Counted from the first letter of the stretch, positions 4,484 to 18,666 are shown. The stretch is DNA of 64,000 nt from Trypanosoma brucei (GCA_000002445.1 CP000071.1:192001-256000); one strand, 5' to 3'. The notes: generated by a model from the sequence alone, not told the origin. Made by a program: numbers and translations.

Positions 4484-7400
4484 TTAACGACCATCGTCCA
4501 TCAACACTTCACCGAAGGCATGACTACCCCAAATCATACTGTAATTGTTCGGTTCCTTTTCGCGAAGGGCGTTTGCGGGGGCCATGCTCTGCTGGGAAAC
4601 ATCTCCAAATACCGCGAACTCACGCACATCGGCCTCCCCTAATTTCCCACACATTTCCTTTACAAATGAATCGAACGAAGTCGTGTGTCTGCTTGCCTCA
4701 TGCGGCATTTCCCTTGACCCCTTTGCATACGTACGGTCTGCTGCCAACTTTACACCTCTGTCCATAATGTCTTCAATAAGCGAGTCATCATCCGAAGCAT
4801 CAGCGTCTTTCGTTTGTTCACCACATGTTCCCACCGGTGGTTGATGTCGCTGCACATCTGTCAAAGGTTTCGTCGTCACACGCATTCGCGCTGCAGGTGT
4901 TAAACCCATGTTGCAAGAGGAACCAAATGCTGAGAATGGGCTTGCATCAATTGCAGAGTCAATAGTTTTCTCCCCATGCTCTATTCCGAAGCGGCAGGGC
5001 TCAGTACACACCACACTTACAGGTGGGAACGAGTACGTCAAAACCGCGTCGAGCGACAACTGATCATGAATGGGGTTTCGGGCCGGGCTTGTGCGAACAT
5101 TCAACAAACTTTGGATGTCTTGCACGGTAAAGTAGCTAGCCTCCGGCATTCCCTTAGGTGTGTCCAGGAGAAAACTGAATGGTTTACTGGTGAAGGTGGC
5201 GTTGCGGAAGTACTCAACAATTGCCTTCGAGCTGCTCGGTTCCGCAAACTCCACGAAACTAAACCACAGCGTTGGGGCGGGGGCACCCAGTTCAGAGCCA
5301 TTCCTTCCCACTCCAGTAATATCCCCCTTTGGTGGAACTTGATTTTCATCACGGCACAATCGAACCTTATTAAGCTCACCAAAGTATGTAAGAAGTCGAC
5401 GAAATTGTGCTCGGCGAAGTGTCGAGGGAAGTTTCGTGATGTATACTGTTCGGTCCATCAATTCGGCCTGTGTGTAAACACTTGGGGCGTAGCCACCTCC
5501 TCGTGGACCTGAAAACGTTTTTGCGGAGTCCAGCCCCGTGGCTGCTTCAGAAAGTTGTGGCCTCACTTGTGACGCACGATGTTGCTGTTGCTGTTGTTGT
5601 TGCAAATGCTGTTGCTGCTGCTGCACCTGTTTTTGGATCAAACTCATTGCCGCGCTGCTTCCACAGTGGCGGAAGAACATTGACGGGGTCGATGCGTCAC
5701 CATGCGGTAACGAAACGGGCGTTGCTGAGTGGGGAGAGGCACATTCCACTGAGACATCGTGGGAGCTGCTGATGTCCATCGGTTCACCACGAGTGGTGAC
5801 TCGGTGAGAAGATGGCGATGTATATGTAAGACCCGGTGAACTATTACTTGTACCGTTAGCATTCACAGGTGTCACTTTCTCTATGACACGCCTTGGGGTT
5901 GGTCGAGCACTGGCACACAATGAAGAATTTCCTCCACCCTGTGCCGAGTCGAGTGGCAGCAGTCCCTCGAGACAATGGTCGTATTCCTTGCGGTACGGAT
6001 CTTTTTTGGCGCGCGACTTATTGTTCTTCCTCCACAAAGACGTGAATTCCTCTAGGCAAGCAAGCAGAATGAGGCACGGTTTGTGAACATCCTCTTCACC
6101 CTTCCCCGCTCCAAACAGGACGGCGGGTTTAGTTGATAGCGGTCGACTTCTTTCAAATTCCTTTGCACTCCTGAGCGCAACCTCGTGCTCCTTGATAATC
6201 TTGACTGCCAATTCATACGGACTTTTCTTCAAGTAACAATACTGGAAGAGATAGGCACTCAACACAGCTGCCACTTTTCGAGACTCATCTGGTTTGTCGT
6301 TGCTGATAAAGAGGTGCACGAGCGACCGTGCGATCTTCGAAATGAAAATTATGTTCCTGCCCATAATCAGGTCGGGGTCTTCACCATTTTCCACTCCCAC
6401 ATTATCCCTACCACCCCTGCGGGGGATCCGCATCTTTTCGTGGAGTGATAACAAGGCATTTACCAGTGGTGTTGAAAGTGCTTGTGCGTGGTGCCCAAAT
6501 GCAATGAGTGTGTCGGTTAACGCTGTGGCAAGTTGCTCCGCCGTCTTTTCTGTTGCCTCTGGGTTAGTAAGCAGCTGCTGCATCTTATCAGTTAACACAT
6601 TGACATCCACGACGTTGGCATGAAGCTCTTCAACCACCTCACGAAGTAGAGCATTATTCCCAACTCTAGCACATAGGTCATTCACGTCACTTGCAACATT
6701 CCTCCGAAATGGTTTTAACATCGTACCGGACTCCACTGCCGCTTCAGAGGCTGCCGTACCACTGACAGGATCTCGGCCGCTTGGTTTAGAAAGGTAGCGC
6801 GCAACCATGGGGAATAACTGCCCTTTAGCGTAGGAACCGTTCAATTTTTCAGCAGCGTCACGTGCAGTGCCCTCCTTATCGAAGAATATCAGCCCACTGC
6901 GCCTTGGGCCACCAGAAAGTTGGACAATATCTGGAAATATTTCTGCACTGAGAGCTCCATAGCGCGAAAAAAGCGCGAAAAGAGATTTTTTGTCCATCGT
7001 TGCTAACAGGTTGTGCACACCAACAAGAAACAGATCACGACCACTGTATGTCCTCTTGAAAAAGTCGTCTATCTCGTCCAACACAGCCATGTTAGATGTG
7101 TCATGCAACGCAGAGTAAGTAGCACTTGTATCATTCCCACCGGCTACGTCAGCAACTGACTGGTTACCAGCAAGCGCCACACCGCCGGGGTGAAAGTCAA
7201 ACAGTTTGTTGAGGTGAACAACATCAATTGGTTGCGCCTGTCCCTCGGGTGGTTTCAACTGAAATAACGACACTGCTTCCATCGCCGTCGCCTCTTCATT
7301 ATAGTATACCAGAGCGCTAACACTGCTGCAGGCCATAGGGGTTGTCGCGAAGCTGCATGATTTAGGGGGCCACATATCGAAGCACTCAGCACCCTTTTGA

Positions 7401-8617
7401 ATAAAGTTCTGACTTAAAACGGAATGAGCCACTTCTGGATCCAAACCGTGTATCGCGACGACGTGCTTCCCGGAGGCTCTATTCATGTGTGAATTGCTCT
7501 GAATAAAGCGGCACATTTCCATGTGTGTTTTGTAGAGTTCAGTACCTGGAGGTAACCGCCATGGCTTCGCTGAGGAGGAGAGACCCCATGTTGGCTGTTG
7601 CTGCGTACGTTGCGTTTGTTGCTGCTTTTGCTTGCCTGACATCGACGTTACACTGCGAGTTGCATCTGGAGACACTGGCAAACTTTGAGCAGGTGGCGCT
7701 TCCGGGTCACAATAGATTACTCGGAGTGGCTGGTGCTGTCCATTAGGCACAAAATCATTAAACTTCTCGACGGCCACAGCAGCAAACGCCTTAGAGGGAA
7801 AGAACACAGCACCTGCGCGTCGATTCGGACGCAGGGAGAAGTGTTGCGGCAAAATTTCTGCTTTCTTTGCATTCATGGGAAAGAATATGTTCAACAGCTC
7901 CTCCTTTGTTGTACGCGACTCGAGGTTGAAAACGGCGACAATATGGTAATTGCTGCACTCAGAAGCGAATGCCAGCATGATTTGGGAGGTGAGTGACTGT
8001 GGTGATTGTGACACAGAATTTTGGGTATTGGCGGCAGTGCTCCCGCTGTTACCACTGGAGCTGTCGTGTGAAGCCATTACGCGTACGCTGGGCGTACTCG
8101 CGGGCCATCGTGCCGCCACGTTCTTCTCTGGAGGTGCAATCATCCCATCATTTGCAATACCACCACGACTCGGAGGCCACGGCATTGCCATTGGCGTCAT
8201 TGGGGCAGGTTGACAATACAAGAGGGGGTTTTGAAGCATTGCGTGCAGATCCACTGGGTTGGGTACAGCAGGGACTGCGAAGCCAACAGCACCCATCGGC
8301 ACATGAAATTCTTTCGCCTCAGGGTTTAATGTCGACTTGGTGGATGCTGCAGCTCCGGCGCCGTCATTCACGAGGGGCCAACAGTGCGCTGCTGTAGTTT
8401 CACTTGATTGAGATGAGGTACCAGTGACCTTCTCCATCTGAATGTCATTTGCAGTGGTTAAAGAAGCGGCCTCCACCGTGAATCCTTTCTGCGTTGGTGG
8501 TTCACTGCTTGCAGGAGAAGTGAGCTGCACCGACGCTATGGATGAACCGGAGTCCCTCTTGGTTGGTTGGGGTTGAGAAACAGTGGAAGTAGTTCCTGCC
8601 GTTTCTGGAGTTATCAT
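4484..8617 (-). CDS. Large Gln/Ser-rich protein with at least three RRM-like modules and a polyQ tract (putative RNA-binding protein). The likely start is ATG 8615-8617; the track's upstream ATG at 8698 lies inside the poly-pyrimidine tract.
   Basis: 1404-aa minus-strand ORF. RRM-like segments are TVYITKLPSTLRRAQFRRLLTYFGELNKVRLCRDE..., HIVAVFNLESRTTKEELLNIFFPMNAKKAEILP...AGAVFFPSKAFAAVAVEKFN and LFLVGVHNLLATMDKKSLFALFSRYGALSAEIFPDIV...GLIFFDKEGTARDAAEKLNG. There is a polyQ run QKQVQQQQQHLQQQQQQQH. No plus-strand ORF of comparable length exists. The ATG at 8615-8617 directly follows a minus-strand pyrimidine tract (ttgttgcgtgtgcgtgtgtgtattttgttttacgttgggaaATG). Confidence 0.7.
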   Translation of the reverse strand: MITPETAGTTSTVSQPQPTKRDSGSSIASVQLTSPASSEPPTQKGFTVEAASLTTANDIQMEKVTGTSSQSSETTAAHCWPLVNDGAGAAASTKSTLNPEAKEFHVPMGAVGFAVPAVPNPVDLHAMLQNPLLYCQPAPMTPMAMPWPPSRGGIANDGMIAPPEKNVAARWPASTPSVRVMASHDSSSGNSGSTAANTQNSVSQSPQSLTSQIMLAFASECSNYHIVAVFNLESRTTKEELLNIFFPMNAKKAEILPQHFSLRPNRRAGAVFFPSKAFAAVAVEKFNDFVPNGQHQPLRVIYCDPEAPPAQSLPVSPDATRSVTSMSGKQKQQQTQRTQQQPTWGLSSSAKPWRLPPGTELYKTHMEMCRFIQSNSHMNRASGKHVVAIHGLDPEVAHSVLSQNFIQKGAECFDMWPPKSCSFATTPMACSSVSALVYYNEEATAMEAVSLFQLKPPEGQAQPIDVVHLNKLFDFHPGGVALAGNQSVADVAGGNDTSATYSALHDTSNMAVLDEIDDFFKRTYSGRDLFLVGVHNLLATMDKKSLFALFSRYGALSAEIFPDIVQLSGGPRRSGLIFFDKEGTARDAAEKLNGSYAKGQLFPMVARYLSKPSGRDPVSGTAASEAAVESGTMLKPFRRNVASDVNDLCARVGNNALLREVVEELHANVVDVNVLTDKMQQLLTNPEATEKTAEQLATALTDTLIAFGHHAQALSTPLVNALLSLHEKMRIPRRGGRDNVGVENGEDPDLIMGRNIIFISKIARSLVHLFISNDKPDESRKVAAVLSAYLFQYCYLKKSPYELAVKIIKEHEVALRSAKEFERSRPLSTKPAVLFGAGKGEEDVHKPCLILLACLEEFTSLWRKNNKSRAKKDPYRKEYDHCLEGLLPLDSAQGGGNSSLCASARPTPRRVIEKVTPVNANGTSNSSPGLTYTSPSSHRVTTRGEPMDISSSHDVSVECASPHSATPVSLPHGDASTPSMFFRHCGSSAAMSLIQKQVQQQQQHLQQQQQQQHRASQVRPQLSEAATGLDSAKTFSGPRGGGYAPSVYTQAELMDRTVYITKLPSTLRRAQFRRLLTYFGELNKVRLCRDENQVPPKGDITGVGRNGSELGAPAPTLWFSFVEFAEPSSSKAIVEYFRNATFTSKPFSFLLDTPKGMPEASYFTVQDIQSLLNVRTSPARNPIHDQLSLDAVLTYSFPPVSVVCTEPCRFGIEHGEKTIDSAIDASPFSAFGSSCNMGLTPAARMRVTTKPLTDVQRHQPPVGTCGEQTKDADASDDDSLIEDIMDRGVKLAADRTYAKGSREMPHEASRHTTSFDSFVKEMCGKLGEADVREFAVFGDVSQQSMAPANALREKEPNNYSMIWGSHAFGEVLMDDGR

Positions 8618-8700
8618 TTCCCAACGTAAAACAAAATACACACACGCACACGCAACAACAGAAAGAAGTTTTTTTAAAAAAAAAGCACAAACAAACAAAA
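8618..8700 (-). promoter_or_regulatory. Poly-pyrimidine tract and probable trans-splice acceptor region upstream of the 4484-8617 gene (minus-strand sense)
   Basis: The minus strand reads ...gtgctttttttttaaaaaaacttctttctgttgttgcgtgtgcgtgtgtgtattttgttttacg... immediately 5' of the ATG. This is inferred from kinetoplastid mRNA processing rules, not mapped. Confidence 0.35.
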
Positions 8701-11347: not shown

Positions 11348-11830
11348 TCATTCAAAGGCATTTACGCATGATTCCACTACATTTAAGAGGTTTGTGTTTT
11401 CTAACGCAGCAGCCACACGTTCCTTGTCGCCAAGTTGTTTGTTTACCTGCTCCTCCTGTTCGTGTGATCCAGGTGTAACGCATATGTCAACTTTCATATT
11501 GCGCGGTAAGCACCTTTTGAGTTTGAGACCAATGCAAAGGCCAATTAGTGTGGTTAAACTGCAATGTGGAACTGTAGGAGTGAATTGGACACGCACCGTT
11601 TGTCTTTCCTCATCCACACTAATCAGTTTTGGGTCAACAACCTGAAGTTCCTCCAATGTATTGGGATGTTCCGGGTCACGAATGGTGCGAATCAGTTCAT
11701 AAATTTCCAACCCGTCGATGGGGTCCCTTACATCTTCGCAGAGTTCCTCCTTTTCCTGTTCAACTGTCCGTTTCCGCTTCCCCAAATTGCCGCGAAAGAC
11801 AGTGGGATTGGGATTGACGAGTTCCTCCAT
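11348..11830 (-). CDS. MIP18/FAM96 family (DUF59) protein, a cytosolic Fe-S cluster assembly CIA2-type factor
   Basis: [12 protein letters not shown]...[30 protein letters not shown]...[29 protein letters not shown]...[43 protein letters not shown]. The DPEHP and TPTVPHCS hallmarks and near-colinearity with human FAM96A/B are evident. Start is chosen at the internal ATG (11828-11830), because the upstream 22 codons of the track ORF ([15 protein letters not shown]...) are translated poly-T spacer. Confidence 0.8.
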
Positions 11831-12634
11831 AACGAGACTAATTTCAGCACTCAAAAAAAAAAAATAATTAAAAAAAACAAACGGGCGCCACGACACACTT
11901 CACTCAACCCCTCCCCTCTTTTCCCTTGCGGCTACAGAAACAGTCCGCTAGAAATAATAATAATAATAATATTAATTGGAGGAAAATAATGGAGTAGTTG
12001 ACGAATGAGAAAACAGCAGACAGGGAAATAAAAGAAATACGTAAAAAGTTAATTAAATGATTTATTAACAACGAAAGTATCACACGCCGTTAGCTGAGCA
12101 AAGAAAGAAAAGAATCTGCCACAGACACGCGCACGCACGTACGACTCAAATAAAACCCAACTAACGGCGATGCAAAGAACAAACTCATTTACCGAAGATT
12201 ACATTCGTAAACTCAGGTTCGTTCTTTTTATTATTCGCGCTTATTTGATCCCTTCTTTATTTATTTCCCGTGACTCATCTCTCCCTATATCTTTTTTTTT
12301 CAAAAAAAAAAAATGAGTTCAGCTTTGCAGATGCCTGGCTGCCAACCACGTGCCGCAACATTATTTCCTCTCACTCCTCCCACATGCTCCGCGGTGGCGC
12401 CTCACGGGTTCCTCCCCACCCGTCAGCATTGCAAATGTATTCGATTCCTTTATTATTATTTTTTTTTCTTGTCCTTTAGTTTTTTGTATGTATGCAAGCA
12501 TGCACAGGCATTTATATTTAATTCGTTCAAAACCGATTTAGTGGGGCACGGAGGATGTTAACAGGAAACACTTTCACAGCCCACAACACCTTAGGGGAAA
12601 GAAAGAAAGGAGCGGAATAAAACTCGTTTTAGAA

Positions 12635-13396
12635 TTAGAACCGCCCCCGCTTCCGATCGTTATTATTTCCGTTAAAGTTTGGTTTCGACTTGTTCCGCGG
12701 GGGTTCCTGGACGCCCCTCTGCTGCTGTTTGCTCTGCTGGGCCACATGCCCTTCGGATTTGCCCACCTTTTGTTTCTTAGCGGGGGGTTCCTCGTCCTCA
12801 TCCTCCTCCTTTTCTTGATCATCATCATCCTCATCTTCATCTTCATCATCTTCATCTTCATCATCTTCGTCATCTTCATCATCTTCCTCATCTTCGTCAT
12901 CGTCATCGTCACTGTCGTCTGTACGATCTACGACCTGTTGGCGCTTCGTTGCTGCGTTACCGTTCTTTTTCCCGTCTGTGAGTGGTACGCCTGCCATGTC
13001 ATCACCATCATCCAATCCCGTGTCTTCCCCTTCTTCTTCCTCCTCCTCCTCCTCAGCGTTGTCGTATTCCCCACTTCCACTCAAAGCAGCGGAAAGCATT
13101 CCTTCCGACTCCTGCTGATACCCACAACAATGAAGAACAGCATTTCCCTTCACACGGAAGACAACTTCTTGTTCATAACCAAAAACGATATCGACGGGAG
13201 TTTGCATCAGTTGCTGAGAAACGTCAAGAGTGAGAAGAGAAAACGATTCACCATCAACTGTCACATACAACGTGCTGCGGCCCTTCACACCGTGCTTTAC
13301 AGAAACAACAGAAAGGTGAAATGAGTGATGCTTTTCCAGCACCAACTTGTGTTCCTTGCCCGGAACGACCTCGAAACCATGAAACATGGGCGCCAT
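12635..13396 (-). CDS. Nucleoplasmin-like (HD2/FKBP-NPL type) acidic nuclear protein with a basic C-terminal tail ending RKRGRF
   Basis: The N-terminus MAPMFHGFEVVPGKEHKLVLEKHHSFHLSVVSVKHG...STLYVTVDGESFSLLTLDVSQQLMQTPVDIVFGYEQEVVFRVKGNAVLHCCGYQ matches the plant HD2 / insect FKBP39 NPL pattern (FWG.EV.PG ... L.H.SQA ... L.V.V.......LGTLS ... DLVF..E.E.......GSVY..GY). It is followed by poly-Glu/Asp tracts and a Lys/Arg-rich end. Confidence 0.75.
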   Translation of the reverse strand: MAPMFHGFEVVPGKEHKLVLEKHHSFHLSVVSVKHGVKGRSTLYVTVDGESFSLLTLDVSQQLMQTPVDIVFGYEQEVVFRVKGNAVLHCCGYQQESEGMLSAALSGSGEYDNAEEEEEEEEGEDTGLDDGDDMAGVPLTDGKKNGNAATKRQQVVDRTDDSDDDDDEDEEDDEDDEDDEDEDDEDEDEDDDDQEKEEDEDEEPPAKKQKVGKSEGHVAQQSKQQQRGVQEPPRNKSKPNFNGNNNDRKRGRF

Positions 13397-14139: not shown

Positions 14140-14199
14140 NNNNNNNNNNNNNNNNNNNNNNNNNNNNNNNNNNNNNNNNNNNNNNNNNNNNNNNNNNNN
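14140..14199. other. Assembly gap (60 N) inside a NOPP44/46 gene copy
   Basis: A literal run of n. The flanks do not join colinearly: the left flank is unique sequence and the right flank resumes inside the NOPP N-terminal domain. Confidence 0.99.
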
Positions 14200-14469
14200 A
14201 GTCAAATGCACTGAGCCAGAACCCGTGGCGGAAAGAGTGGTTCCCTGCTCTGCGGTTAACACGAGGTCGATGCCCATTTGAAATAGGCTCCGCTTGGGGT
14301 CAAGCGTGGCAATGGTAAATTCCTTCCCCTGAAAGGATATCACAAGAGTAATAGCACCACTTGCATTCGCAGGCACAGCAATTTGTGTGAGACGAAGTAC
14401 GTGGTCTTCGGGTATCTTCGGTTTGACCTTCTGCCCGGCACTCACTTCAACACCGTAGAAACCCTTCAC
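14200..14469 (-). CDS. NOPP44/46-type gene copy, N-terminal NPL-like domain only. It is truncated by the assembly gap, and its canonical start codon is replaced (ATG GAG GGT becomes GTG AAG GGT), so it is a possible pseudogene or has an alternative start.
   Basis: It encodes ...VKGFYGVEVSAGQKVKPKIPEDHVLRLTQIAVPANASGAITLVISFQGKEFTIATLDPKRSLFQMGIDLVLTAEQGTTLSATGSGSVHLT, identical to residues 2-90 of the 16921-17907 gene, and then runs into the Ns. The 5' flank (14470-14870) is unrelated to the 5' flanks of the other copies. Confidence 0.5.
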
Positions 14470-14870: not shown

Positions 14871-15195
14871 AACTGAAGGTAGAGAAATGTGGTCGCTCAA
14901 GCGGTGCATGTCAGTACAAGCACAAACATTAATAACAATATCACAATTTCTCCATGCCTCCACGTGCAACACAACATCCGAACATGAGGGGATATATCGT
15001 CATCACACGTATCAATCATAGAACACGAGTGTAATAAGAGGTTAGCCTCGTAGTCAAATGCATAAACGGGAATAATAATGAGGCATATATCACGTATTCC
15101 ATAAGATTACTCTCTCAGTTACAACAATGCGGCACATCACATGGCACATATATCATTTTTAGTAACGACCCCTCCCAGAGTTCCCGCCGCGGAAT
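14871..15195. repeat. Copy 1 of a repeated 3'-flank/3'-end module of the NOPP array (about 325 bp shared by three gene copies)
   Basis: The string caactgaaggtagagaaatgtggtcgctcaagcggtgcatgtcagtacaagcacaaac...catttttagtaacgacccctcccagagttcccgcc recurs near-identically at 16633-16957 and 18296-18606. Confidence 0.9.
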
Positions 15196-16259
15196 CCACC
15201 TCTATTCCAGACCGCATTTGTTCCGCCTCTTCCGCTGTAAGGGGGCAGAGTGCGAGATGCATCGTTTAGGTGGTGATTTGGTGGGAAAGGATAGTTGTTT
15301 CGGCTGGAATAGGGATGAAAACCCCTATTTATTGCAGCAAACCCCCTTCCTAACAAATTGCTTGACATTCCTTGCCACTCACCCCCGCTATACAAGTACC
15401 TTTCTTCATTGGTATATCCCCTTCTCATTTCACCATTTGCTTGCCCTCTATACCCGCCACCCATGTAACCTCTTCCCCTACTTGAATACCCACCTCTCCC
15501 GTACCCTCTGTTCATTCCCAACTGATCCGCTTCATGGATTGGTTCATTATAAATGGCACCGAAACCACCTTGGGAAGAAGTGCTATTTATTCTCTGACGT
15601 CCACGTTGCCTGAAAAAACCCTGATGAACACCGCCGTACCCTCCTTCACCGTTGTAACGAAAGTAACCTCCCCGACGATATCTATGCTCATCCACGTGTT
15701 GTTCGTTGTGAAACTCGACTCCTCCCTCATGCCTAATTTTTGAAGGTCGCTCTTCGCCCTTATCGCCTCTCTTCCCAATTTTTTCCACACCATCATCAAC
15801 GCTCACAATACCTTCAACATCATAGTCACTTTCGCTGGTATTGTTTGAACTTTGCACTGATGTTTTACAAGCGGGCGCTACGCCACGAAAAGGCGGCGGC
15901 GCCATTTTCTCGAATGGGACACCACTGCAAATCTCACCACCGCAACTTGACTCACCATCCGTAACATTCTCAATAGGTTGTATATATCCAGTCACATGCA
16001 CTGAGCCGTTGCCAGTGGCGGAAAGAATAATATTCTGCTCTGCTTTAATCACAAGGTCAATCCCCATTTGCGATACATTCCTCACAGGATCAAGAGAAGC
16101 GATAGTAAATTCTTTACCCTGAAGGGAAACGACAAGAGAGACGGCATCACTTGTATTCGCAGGCACAGCAATTTGTGTGAGACGAAGTACGTTACCCTCC
16201 GGTATCTCTGGAATAACTTTCTCCCCGACGCTCACTTCAACACCGTAGAAACCCTCCAT
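15159..16259 (-). CDS. NOPP44/46-related paralog. It keeps the NPL-like N-terminal domain, has no acidic tract, and ends in a Tyr/Gly/Arg-rich low-complexity (RGG/YG, FUS-like) tail with RGGNSGRGRY.
   Basis: The N-terminus MEGFYGVEVSVGEKVIPEIPEGNVLRLTQIAVPANTSDAVSLVVSLQGKEFTIASLDPVRNVSQMGIDLVIKAEQNIILSATGNGSVHVTGYIQP is about 75% identical to the NOPP copy at 16921-17907. The tail is ...YRRGGYFRYNGEGGYGGVHQGFF...NRGYGRGGYSSRGRGYMGGGYRGQANGEMRRGY...NRGGFRGGNSGRGRY. The last ~12 codons and the 3' flank are identical to the NOPP copy. Confidence 0.8.
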   Translation of the reverse strand: MEGFYGVEVSVGEKVIPEIPEGNVLRLTQIAVPANTSDAVSLVVSLQGKEFTIASLDPVRNVSQMGIDLVIKAEQNIILSATGNGSVHVTGYIQPIENVTDGESSCGGEICSGVPFEKMAPPPFRGVAPACKTSVQSSNNTSESDYDVEGIVSVDDGVEKIGKRGDKGEERPSKIRHEGGVEFHNEQHVDEHRYRRGGYFRYNGEGGYGGVHQGFFRQRGRQRINSTSSQGGFGAIYNEPIHEADQLGMNRGYGRGGYSSRGRGYMGGGYRGQANGEMRRGYTNEERYLYSGGEWQGMSSNLLGRGFAAINRGFHPYSSRNNYPFPPNHHLNDASRTLPPYSGRGGTNAVWNRGGFRGGNSGRGRY

Positions 16260-16486: not shown

Positions 16487-16957
16487 CTCTCATCATTATC
16501 CTTTGTTATCATTATTATTCTTATTCACGCTGATTCATCGTTTATATTTTCTCTCCTTATATTACTCAACCATTTCTTTAGTGTCCTCTAACGCTGTCCA
16601 TAATTTCAAGCGCAAGAAAAACGTTGCACTACAACTGAAGGTAGAGAAATGTGGTCGCTCAAGCGGTGCATGTCAGTACAAGCACAAACATTAATAACAA
16701 TATCACAATTTCTCCATGCCTCCACGTGCAACACAACATCCGAACATGAGGGGATATATCGTCATCACACGTATCAATCATAGAACACGAGTGTAATAAG
16801 AGGTTAGCCTCGTAGTCAAATGCATAAACGGGAATAATAATGAGGCATATATCACGTATTCCATAAGATTACCCTCTCAGTTACAACAATGCGGCACATC
16901 ACATGGCACATATATCATTTTTAGTAACGACCCCTCCCAGAGTTCCCGCCACGGAAG
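16487..16957. repeat. Copy 2 of the array intergenic/3'-end repeat (about 470 bp shared with 18149-18606; the 3' 325 bp is also shared with 14871-15195)
   Basis: Direct comparison of the three regions. It starts at ctctcatcattatcctttgttatcattattattcttattcacgctg... Confidence 0.9.
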
Positions 16958-17907
16958 TTGCCGCGATTCCCGCCACGGAAGTTACCACGGTTTCCTCCAC
17001 GATCCCCGCCACGGAAGTTGCCACGGTTTCCTCCACGATCTCCGCCACGGAAGTTTCCACGGTTTCCTCCGTTACCACTTCGGTCTCCGCCGCGGAAGTT
17101 TCCACGGTTTCCTCCACGGTCTCCGCCACGGAACCCTCCGCGATTACCACCGTTACCGTTTCGGTCCCCACCACGGAACCCCCCGCGATTACCACCACGG
17201 AACCCTTGTTGCTCAGTGCGTTGCACTTTACTGGCTGGCTCATCATCATCATCGTCATCATCATCATCATCATCATCATCGTCATCGTCATCGTCATTAT
17301 CATTATCATTATCATCTTCTTCATCATCGTCATCGTCATCGTCATCGTCACTGTCGTCTTCATCGTAGGCTTCATCATCATCATCATTGTCGTCTTCGTC
17401 ACCCGCGTCAATTCCTTCATTGTCCTTTTCAATACCTTCCTCGTCATCGGATTCGTCGTCTCCATCGACGCCGTCACCATTTGCTTCATCGGAATTCTCT
17501 TCGCTTACAGGAAACTTGGCAGATTTCCCTCCTCTTTTCGGGGGAACTCCGTAGGATTCCATATCTTCAGCATCCACCTCATCGAGATCATCTTCCTCAT
17601 CAAAATCACTTCCATCATCAACAGGTTGAACGTATCCAGTCAAATGCACTGAGCCAGAACCCGTGGCGGAAAGAGTGGTTCCCTGCTCTGCGGTTAACAC
17701 GAGGTCGATGCCCATTTGAAATAGGCTCCGCTTGGGGTCAAGCGTGGCAATGGTAAATTCCTTCCCCTGAAAGGATATCACAAGAGTAATAGCACCACTT
17801 GCATTCGCAGGCACAGCAATTTGTGTGAGACGAAGTACGTGGTCTTCGGGTATCTTCGGTTTGACCTTCTGCCCGGCACTCACTTCAACACCGTAGAAAC
17901 CCTCCAT
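16921..17907 (-). CDS. NOPP44/46: Nucleolar phosphoprotein NOPP44/46-type: NPL-like N-terminal domain, long Asp/Glu tract and C-terminal RGG/RGN repeats
   Basis: MEGFYGVEVSAGQKVKPKIPEDHVLRLTQIAV...GSVHLTGYVQP, then an acidic region (over 40 consecutive Asp residues encoded by GAT/GAC repeats), then roughly 11 RGGF/RGGN/RGNF repeat units, ending GGNSGRGRY. This domain order matches the described T. brucei NOPP44/46. Confidence 0.85.
   Translation of the reverse strand: MEGFYGVEVSAGQKVKPKIPEDHVLRLTQIAVPANASGAITLVISFQGKEFTIATLDPKRSLFQMGIDLVLTAEQGTTLSATGSGSVHLTGYVQPVDDGSDFDEEDDLDEVDAEDMESYGVPPKRGGKSAKFPVSEENSDEANGDGVDGDDESDDEEGIEKDNEGIDAGDEDDNDDDDEAYDEDDSDDDDDDDDDEEDDNDNDNDDDDDDDDDDDDDDDDDDEPASKVQRTEQQGFRGGNRGGFRGGDRNGNGGNRGGFRGGDRGGNRGNFRGGDRSGNGGNRGNFRGGDRGGNRGNFRGGDRGGNRGNFRGGNRGNFRGGNSGRGRY
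16945..17215. repeat. Coding minisatellite: periodic repeats of about 30-36 nt encoding the (GGDRGGNRGNFR)n RGG box
   Basis: Recurring ccgccacggaagttgccacggtttcctccacgatc units on the plus strand. Confidence 0.85.
17241..17365. repeat. Coding trinucleotide repeat (ATC/GTC on plus, equal to GAT/GAC, encoding poly-Asp)
   Basis: catcatcatcatcgtcatcatcatcatcatcatcatcgtcatcgtcatcgtcattatcattatcatt... read directly. Confidence 0.9.
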
Positions 17908-18148
17908 TGCTGCCGATTGGAATGTAATTTATCTACCACCATTGCAAGACAAAGTCAGGTATTGCGAGGAAAGAGAGAAAAGGTTACAAACTCCAAGGGG
18001 CAAAGAGTAAAAAATACAAAAAAAAACACCGCCATCGGACAAAACACACAAAATGAAAGTGTTATTACCCAAAAGTAAGTACCAGGAAACAGATTCCATT
18101 ATATGCAAAGCGACCTATCACCTTCTTCCACATCCTCTGTCCCTCCCA

Positions 18149-18606
18149 CTCTCATCATTATCCTTTGTTATCATTATTATTCTTATTCACGCTGATTCAT
18201 CGTTTATATTTTCTCTCCTTATATTACTCAACCATTTCTTTAGTGTCCTCTAACGCTGTCCATAATTTCAAGCGCAAGAAAAACGTTGCACTACAACTGA
18301 AGGTAGAGAAATGTGGTCGCTCAAGCGGTGCATGTCAGTACAAGCACAAACATTAATAACAATATCACAATTTCTCCATGCCTCCACGTGCAACACAACA
18401 TCCGAACATGAGGGGATATATCGTCATCACACGTATCAATCATAGAACACGAGTGTAATAAGAGGTTAGCCTCGTAGTCAAATGCATAAACGGGAATAAT
18501 AATGAGGCATATATCACGTATTCCATAAGATTACCCTCTCAGTTACAACAATGCGGCACATCACATGGCACATATATCATTTTTAGTAACGACACCTCCC
18601 AGAGTT
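18149..18606. repeat. Copy 3 of the array repeat, ending in the last 8 codons of a further NOPP copy and then a gap
   Basis: Identical to 16487-16945 except for occasional single-base differences (for example gacacctccc versus gacccctccc). Confidence 0.9.
18583..18606 (-). CDS. 3'-terminal fragment (…NSGRCRY-stop) of an additional NOPP44/46 copy whose body is lost in the assembly gap
   Basis: The minus strand reads aactctgggaggtgtcgttactaa, giving N S G R C R Y stop, colinear with the C-terminus of the 16921-17907 gene. The 60 N follow immediately. Confidence 0.45.
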   Translation of the reverse strand, partial: NSGRCRY

Positions 18607-18666
18607 NNNNNNNNNNNNNNNNNNNNNNNNNNNNNNNNNNNNNNNNNNNNNNNNNNNNNNNNNNNN
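18607..18666. other. Assembly gap (60 N) at the upstream edge of the NOPP array
   Basis: Literal n run. The sequence after the gap is unique, not NOPP-like. Confidence 0.99.

Follow-up and report, generated by a model that had tools for sequence, protein, structure and literature searches.

The question raised by this locus is what kind of protein Trypanosoma brucei encodes directly downstream of its NOPP44/46 array, and whether that protein acts in the same way as its neighbours. To our knowledge, trypanosomes have so far yielded no characterised histone chaperone with a genuine nucleoplasmin fold. An initial annotation of the window (the whole stretch of 64,000 nucleotides of DNA analysed here) described the gene as a second, HD2-like NPL protein that had arisen by an old local duplication. 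Membership of the NPL family was recognised for T. brucei, T. cruzi and Leishmania proteins already in 2015, when sequences of all three were included in an NPL alignment whose supplements do not give the identity of the T. brucei sequence (Edlich-Muth et al. 2015). Given that the gene is annotated and that its NPL domain, nuclear enrichment and nucleolar localisation are already public, the novelty of the gene as such is low.

An exact ATG-to-stop open reading frame (ORF) of 253 codons plus stop lies at 12635-13396 on the minus strand and reproduces exactly the 253-aa sequence that had been quoted for it. Its product is identical (100% identity, 100% coverage) to a protein of T. brucei brucei TREU927 (XP_846910.1, AAZ12844.1, UniProt Q57YF7), for which an NPL Pfam domain is precomputed, which carries the database name "nucleolar RNA-binding protein, putative", and with which a T. 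equiperdum protein shares a 90% cluster. The gene is almost certainly Tb927.8.730. This assignment was inferred from the following: (i) DRBD17 is Tb927.8.710 and matches a 1404-aa RRM-carrying ORF at 4484-8698, (ii) the TrypTag tagging primer for Tb927.8.750 encodes the C-terminus of a 366-aa ORF, (iii) exactly three genes lie between these two ORFs, and (iv) GenBank accessions run from AAZ12844 (the 253-aa protein) to AAZ12846 (the 366-aa protein).

Directly upstream in the direction of transcription, and on the same strand, are three NOPP-type NPL genes, which confirms the placement of the ORF at the end of the NOPP array. These are a 328-aa NOPP44/46-1-type gene (16921-17907, minus strand) with an NPL domain, an acidic tract, 14 RGG repeats and a GRGRY end; NOPP44/46-2 (Tb927.8.750; 15159-16259, minus strand), recognised by its tagging primer, with 366 aa, an NPL domain and a non-acidic G/R/Y-rich tail; and the 5' part of a third NOPP copy (14200-14469, minus strand), which is cut by an assembly gap at 14140-14199. 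The downstream neighbour, at 11348-11896 on the minus strand, is a gene with the Pfam domain FeS_assembly_P (PF01883), and this neighbour is conserved elsewhere. NOPP44/46-2 has an architecture markedly unlike the rest of the array: its NPL domain is 73% identical to that of NOPP44/46-1, but it has no long acidic tract (middle region 12% D/E, pI 7.8), and its G/R/Y/N-rich tail holds only 5 RGG. The window contains two 60-base runs of N, the one just mentioned, which truncates a NOPP copy after its NPL domain and across which an annotated stub protein reads, and another at 18607-18666, preceded by a copy of the NOPP intergenic/3' region (18147-18606) with 99.8% identity. Because both gaps fall within NOPP repeat units, the assembly probably understates how many NOPP copies there are.

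Residues 5-94 of Tb927.8.730 (13115-13384, minus strand) match Pfam NPL (PF17800) with an E value of 6.7e-16 and 59.3 bits against a cutoff of 23.4, covering profile positions 1-93 of 94; the NOPP copies score about equally well. A single-sequence AlphaFold run folded the N-terminal part into an all-beta domain and left residues 97-253 disordered (pLDDT below 50), and an AF2 model of the domain built with an alignment of 15 orthologues contains eight strands in a beta sandwich (pLDDT 95.4, pTM 0.86). With this predicted model as the query, a Foldseek search of the PDB gave a list headed by nucleoplasmin folds (HDT2, AtFKBP43, Drosophila FKBP39, HDT4, HDT1, AtFKBP53, human NPM1, Plasmodium PfNPM and Xenopus NO38). 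The best match was Arabidopsis HDT2 (TM 0.83/0.87, rmsd 1.7 Å); likeness to NPM1/NO38 amounted to TM 0.72-0.80, and the NPM1/NO38/PfNPM group fell at about 0.72-0.84. HDTs themselves are reportedly described as nucleoplasmins. Profile, model and structural search all bear out a second NPL-fold protein at this locus, and its N-terminus is predicted to adopt the nucleoplasmin-like eight-stranded fold. The Pfam scan of Tb927.8.730 gave no match to the nucleoplasmin core family at E values up to 1, and detected no zinc finger, no FKBP peptidyl-prolyl isomerase domain (PF00254) and no RNA-binding domain.

Similarity to the NOPP N-terminal domains extends beyond low-complexity sequence: in pairwise BLASTP, identity to these domains was 31% and 26% (E 6e-17 and 3e-14), and no low-complexity region was involved. 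A tblastn search of the 64-kb window with the NPL domain of Tb927.8.730 did not recover the NOPP copies at an E value of 1e-3, and the finding of NOPP by pairwise BLASTP but not by tblastn indicates strong divergence. Within the window, DNA similarity between the two is limited to GAT/GAA acidic codon repeats, which rules out a recent member of the NOPP repeat, whose units are ~99% identical to one another in DNA.

Orthologues were collected with an exhaustive phmmer search, a word-indexed search having returned 3 matches with the full-length protein and none with the NPL domain. It yielded 44 relatives at E values up to 1e-3, the closest of which form a group referred to here as target-type. 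Identity to the NPL domain of Tb927.8.730 is 63% in T. conorhini, 60% in T. congolense, 51% in T. vivax, 50% in L. donovani, 47% in Phytomonas, 45% in Angomonas and 40% in Trypanoplasma (Cryptobia) borreli. Nine residues (F5, H27, L28, S29, G49, D69, Q76, G84 and G92) are invariant in 15 orthologues from Trypanosoma to Trypanoplasma borreli, indicating purifying selection. In a Neighbor-Joining tree that included the NOPP N-terminal domains, the target-type group, with Tb927.8.730, stands apart from the NOPP-type group, with plant HDTs and FKBP39 outside both; bootstrap support for the key clades is 38-57%, such that the tree is weak by itself. An independent OrthoFinder table groups Tb927.8.740, Tb927.8.750 and Tb927.8.760 without Tb927.8.730.

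Due to the low bootstrap support, the argument for paralogy rests mainly on synteny. In T. conorhini, L. donovani, Angomonas deanei and Phytomonas, as well as on a contig deposited as that of the fly Bactrocera neohumeralis, a NOPP44/46 orthologue is followed on the same strand by a Tb927.8.730 orthologue and then by the FeS_assembly_P gene. This last gene lies next downstream of the Tb927.8.730 orthologue at all kinetoplastid loci surveyed, among them a Logan contig. Tb927.8.730 is an ancient tandem paralogue of NOPP44/46, and conservation of gene order across Trypanosoma, Leishmania, Angomonas and Phytomonas places the tandem duplication before the trypanosomatid radiation, with both copies kept adjacent ever since. 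The initial annotation was therefore right in proposing two sub-families side by side and an old local duplication with divergence. Because a parabodonid also has a target-type sequence, the split between target-type and NOPP-type may be even older than the trypanosomatids. Beyond the FeS_assembly_P gene the neighbourhood varies. A PIF1 helicase gene follows it in the Leishmania, Angomonas and Logan loci, with a separate rotamase gene in Angomonas and Logan; the gene that follows it in T. brucei is the RRM protein DRBD17, and its presence in place of the PIF1 helicase gene points to a synteny break in T. brucei.

The two sub-families also differ at the position of the His once read as catalytic in plant HD2. 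Tb927.8.730 carries a His-x-Ser motif, His27-Leu28-Ser29, on strand beta3 (13310-13318, minus strand) and an Asp, Asp69, on beta6 (13190-13192, minus strand), which corresponds to the pore Asp62 of FKBP39. HMMER alignment places His27 (FHLS) on the His of HDT2 (vHISq), HDT4 (vHASq), AtFKBP43 (lHLSq) and FKBP39 (fHISg), in agreement with the position first claimed for it, and it aligns Asp69 with the Asp that the HDTs and FKBP39 have in common. His-Leu-Ser is present in 15 of 15 target-type kinetoplastid sequences, and Asp69 is likewise invariant. The position of this motif is occupied by Arg-x-Thr/Ser in T. brucei NOPP44/46 and in its orthologues from T. conorhini, L. donovani, Angomonas and Phytomonas (FHLSV in Tb927.8.730 versus LRLTQ in NOPP44/46). 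The same dichotomy has been noted between the His-x-Ser of FKBP39 and HD2 and the Arg-x-Thr of fungal Fpr4 (Edlich-Muth et al. 2015). Trypanosomatids, which keep both sub-types next to each other, thus offer a natural system for studying the function of the pore residues.

A near motif-for-motif match to plant HD2, as originally described, is an overstatement. NPL-domain identity is 33% to HDT2 and 28% to HDT4 (phmmer against the PDB, E 0.031 and 0.0021, respectively), and the NOPP NPL domain is equally close to HDT2 (E 0.002). As judged from these sequence comparisons, the term 'HD2-like' does not separate Tb927.8.730 from NOPP except for the His that it has kept. The extreme N-termini differ as well: the MEFWG of plant HD2 is missing from Tb927.8.730, which begins MAPMFHGFEV, and NOPP44/46 represents a further sub-type (MEGFYG.EV together with L-R-x-T-Q). 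A small feature of the target-type domain is found at residues 89-92 ('HCCG', 13121-13132, minus strand), where a Cys directly follows the conserved His of beta8 (HC[CVTI]GY). The Cys is shared by almost every trypanosomatid-like sequence of the target type (one reads NC in place of HC), and HL or HV stands at this point in Trypanoplasma borreli, in the remaining deeper-branching members of the target type and throughout the NOPP type.

The E/D tracts and basic tail reported downstream of the domain are present. Acidic tract A1 (residues 110-133, EYDNAEEEEEEEEGEDTGLDDGDD; 12998-13069, minus strand), recognised by composition, is predicted to be disordered; A2 (residues 157-203; 12788-12928, minus strand), likewise recognised by composition, is enclosed in a segment (residues 148-203) in which 42 of 56 residues are D/E, and A2 alone resembles NOPP in DNA, through its GAT/GAA codons. 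The D/E content is ~55% between residue 100 and the last 45 residues, and over the whole protein it is 73 of 253, with a pI of 4.2. The C-terminal tail (residues 204-253; 12638-12787, minus strand) is basic (pI 11.5), begins with PPAKKQKV, ends in DRKRGRF and contains no RGG. RGG repeats are absent from every target-type orthologue examined for composition. By comparison, NOPP44/46-1 has 14, and the T. conorhini and L. donovani NOPP orthologues carry 21-26.

The KRGRF end, said to echo the GRGRY end of the NOPP copies, does exist, but it is better explained as a conserved C-terminal motif for nuclear localisation. Residues 249-252 (KRGR; 12641-12652, minus strand) constitute a candidate monopartite nuclear localisation signal (NLS) of the KRxR class, a motif over-represented among T. 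brucei nuclear proteins and interpreted as a monopartite NLS core (Goos et al. 2017, PMC5519215). Tb927.8.730 and its orthologues in T. conorhini, T. congolense, T. vivax and Phytomonas each have a single KRxR within the last 7 residues. At the other end of the tail, a P-x-K-x-x-[RK]-x-E junction that follows the acidic tract is common to both paralogue families, and may act as a second NLS or nucleolar signal. The corresponding sequences are EEPPAKKQKV in Tb927.8.730 (12764-12787, minus strand), EPASKVQRTE in T. brucei NOPP, VPRKFQRAE in the L. donovani NOPP orthologue and QPRKIQRTE in that of T. conorhini. Based on this shared junction and on the C-terminal ends of the L. donovani (KRGRY) and Angomonas (FRGRF) NOPP orthologues, the full layout of the two families is probably homologous.

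Expression and location were taken from published work. In the procyclic nuclear proteome of Goos et al. (2017), 6 peptides of Tb927.8.730 were detected; its log2 nuclear enrichment was 2.57 with p 2.3e-4, which passes the study's thresholds (0.7 for log2 enrichment, 0.05 for p). In the source data of TrypTag it is assigned to the "nucleolus" and to a G1-labelled cell-cycle cluster, and these data agree with the suggestion that it is a nucleolar protein in its own right. A whole-word literature search returned no main-text mention of Tb927.8.730, and it is not mentioned in the supplement of a nucleolar-targeting paper or in a preprint on Leishmania BDF7.

Tb927.8.730 was compared with its closest known systems. 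NOPP44/46 (Tb927.8.760 and Tb927.8.750) shares with Tb927.8.730 an N-terminal NPL domain, acidic tract, junction motif, basic tail, nucleolar location, strand and locus, but differs in belonging to a separate clade and orthogroup with 26-31% NPL identity, and in its length (328 or 366 aa versus 253 aa) and RGG content. Plant HD2/HDT proteins (HDT1-4; PDB 7vmf, 7vmh, 7vrr and 7vmi) share the NPL fold, the His-x-Ser and Asp residues and an acidic disordered region; Tb927.8.730 falls outside the plant clade at 28-33% identity and has no counterpart of the C-terminal C2H2 zinc finger carried by HD-tuins (PMC4414354), there being no Cys in residues 97-253. The NPL-FKBPs (Drosophila FKBP39, yeast Fpr3/Fpr4, and Arabidopsis FKBP43/FKBP53) resemble it in fold and acidic linker, and FKBP39 also in its His-x-Ser, but have an FKBP peptidyl-prolyl isomerase domain that Tb927.8.730 lacks. 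[quoted passage not shown] 2015). The published T. brucei NLP (Tb927.10.5450) shares a name only. It is an unrelated 957-aa AT-hook protein whose 'nucleoplasmin-like' region (e = 2.3e-3) overlaps a Glu-rich stretch, and its identity with Tb927.8.730 was rejected.

We propose that Tb927.8.730 is probably a nucleolar nucleoplasmin-type chaperone that would act as a pentamer on basic proteins, and not a deacetylase. Its NPL beta sandwich would most likely assemble into a homopentamer, as judged from FKBP39, Fpr4 and HD2; ~155 disordered residues with two long Asp/Glu tracts would serve to hold basic client proteins, for instance histones and perhaps ribosomal proteins; and the KRxR of the short basic tail would direct nuclear import. 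Tb927.8.730 would then be the conservative member of an ancient tandem pair, having kept the ancestral His-x-Ser...Asp pore residues, and NOPP44/46 would have gained RGG RNA-binding repeats and swapped the pore His for Arg. Oligomerisation, clients and activity are argued here by analogy with FKBP39, Fpr4, HDTs, AtFKBP43/53, PfNPM and NPM1. All NPL proteins tested (FKBP39, Fpr4 and AtHD2) form pentamers or decamers (Edlich-Muth et al. 2015), and binding to both H2A/H2B and H3/H4 is known for PfNPM and for nucleoplasmins of the FKBP and HDT types. The chaperone reading is supported by the top Foldseek matches, which are pentameric histone chaperones or their kin. It is important to note that the clients could instead be ribosomal proteins or pre-ribosomes, given that NOPP44/46 is tied to 60S biogenesis and RNA rather than to histones. 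Even so, Tb927.8.730 is the cleanest candidate for a trypanosome nucleoplasmin-fold histone chaperone.

The best of the competing explanations, which we nevertheless consider rather unlikely, is that Tb927.8.730 is an RNA-binding ribosome-biogenesis factor like NOPP44/46, contacting pre-rRNA or forming mixed pentamers with its neighbour. Paralogy and adjacency, a recognisably similar NPL domain, nucleolar location and a common layout and junction motif all link it to a protein that binds mRNA and RNA and is implicated in 60S maturation in the literature. What tells against such a role is the part of NOPP44/46 that Tb927.8.730 does not share, as neither it nor the orthologues examined contain a single RGG, and Pfam detects no RNA-binding domain in it. 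In light of the missing RGG repeats, the "RNA-binding" label in the database is, from sequence, probably a mis-transfer from NOPP44/46, apparently by way of homology to its non-RNA-binding part.

A more ambitious extension of the chaperone reading, to which we attach a low probability, would make Tb927.8.730 the kinetoplastid counterpart of the HDT/NPL-FKBP nucleolar histone chaperones, shaping chromatin transcribed by RNA polymerase I. This would include the rDNA and possibly, in T. brucei, the polymerase I-transcribed VSG and procyclin units. Mixed pentamers with NOPP44/46, were they to form, would combine histone-binding acidic tails with RNA-binding RGG tails, and the ring of invariant pore His and Asp residues might serve as a metal-dependent assembly switch.

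That Tb927.8.730 is an HD2-type histone deacetylase with His27 and Asp69 as catalytic residues is highly improbable. Both correspond in alignments to residues of plant HD2 for which a catalytic role was once suggested, a proposal credited to Aravind and Koonin (1998), and both are invariant in the orthologues; HDT2 is, moreover, the best structural match. However, no HDAC activity was detected for the FKBP39 NPL domain, and its His and Asp lie in the five-fold pore of the pentamer, inaccessible to substrate and with poor geometry for a catalytic triad; it was concluded that FKBP39, Arabidopsis HD2 and their relatives are more likely not deacetylases or hydrolases (Edlich-Muth et al. 2015). A later structural study calls HDTs nucleoplasmins in its title (Bobde et al. 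2022). The position of the HD2 'catalytic' His in Tb927.8.730 thus stands, and its catalytic reading is no longer favoured. By analogy with the metal binding suggested for FKBP39 and its relatives (Edlich-Muth et al. 2015), the pore His and Asp of Tb927.8.730 may bind metal ions.

We give practically no credence to a decaying, non-functional remnant of NOPP44/46, as a place at the edge of the tandem array and a tail without RGG repeats might suggest, when the ORF is intact, orthologues with 40-63% NPL identity and invariant core residues extend across Kinetoplastea, the position is kept in four trypanosomatid lineages, 6 peptides of the protein were detected, and no DNA similarity to NOPP exists beyond acidic codon repeats.

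Several further observations concern the loci surveyed. A third short NPL gene (114-152 aa) is located just upstream of the NOPP orthologue in Leishmania, Angomonas and Phytomonas (4664-5020 in locus L001, 6063-6407 in L003 and 4674-5132 in L005); that of L. donovani has an LHVTQ motif and a short acidic tail. A tblastn search with the NOPP NPL domain found no counterpart of this gene in the T. brucei window. The contig filed under B. neohumeralis (JAMJQZ010000711.1) is very probably trypanosomatid contamination of an insect assembly: its 'fly' protein, XP_050340462.1, groups with the Phytomonas sequence in the tree and sits in trypanosomatid gene order, with a rotamase gene downstream. Proteins attributed to Lygus hesperus, Colponema vietnamica and Bolivina argentea similarly resemble kinetoplastid sequences that ended up in datasets of a host or predator. 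Finally, the L. donovani locus (L001, 10001-11095) contains a continuous 364-aa ORF where the gene model has 247 aa, and a 356-aa variant exists. Some L. donovani records appear to collapse or mis-model the acidic-repeat region.
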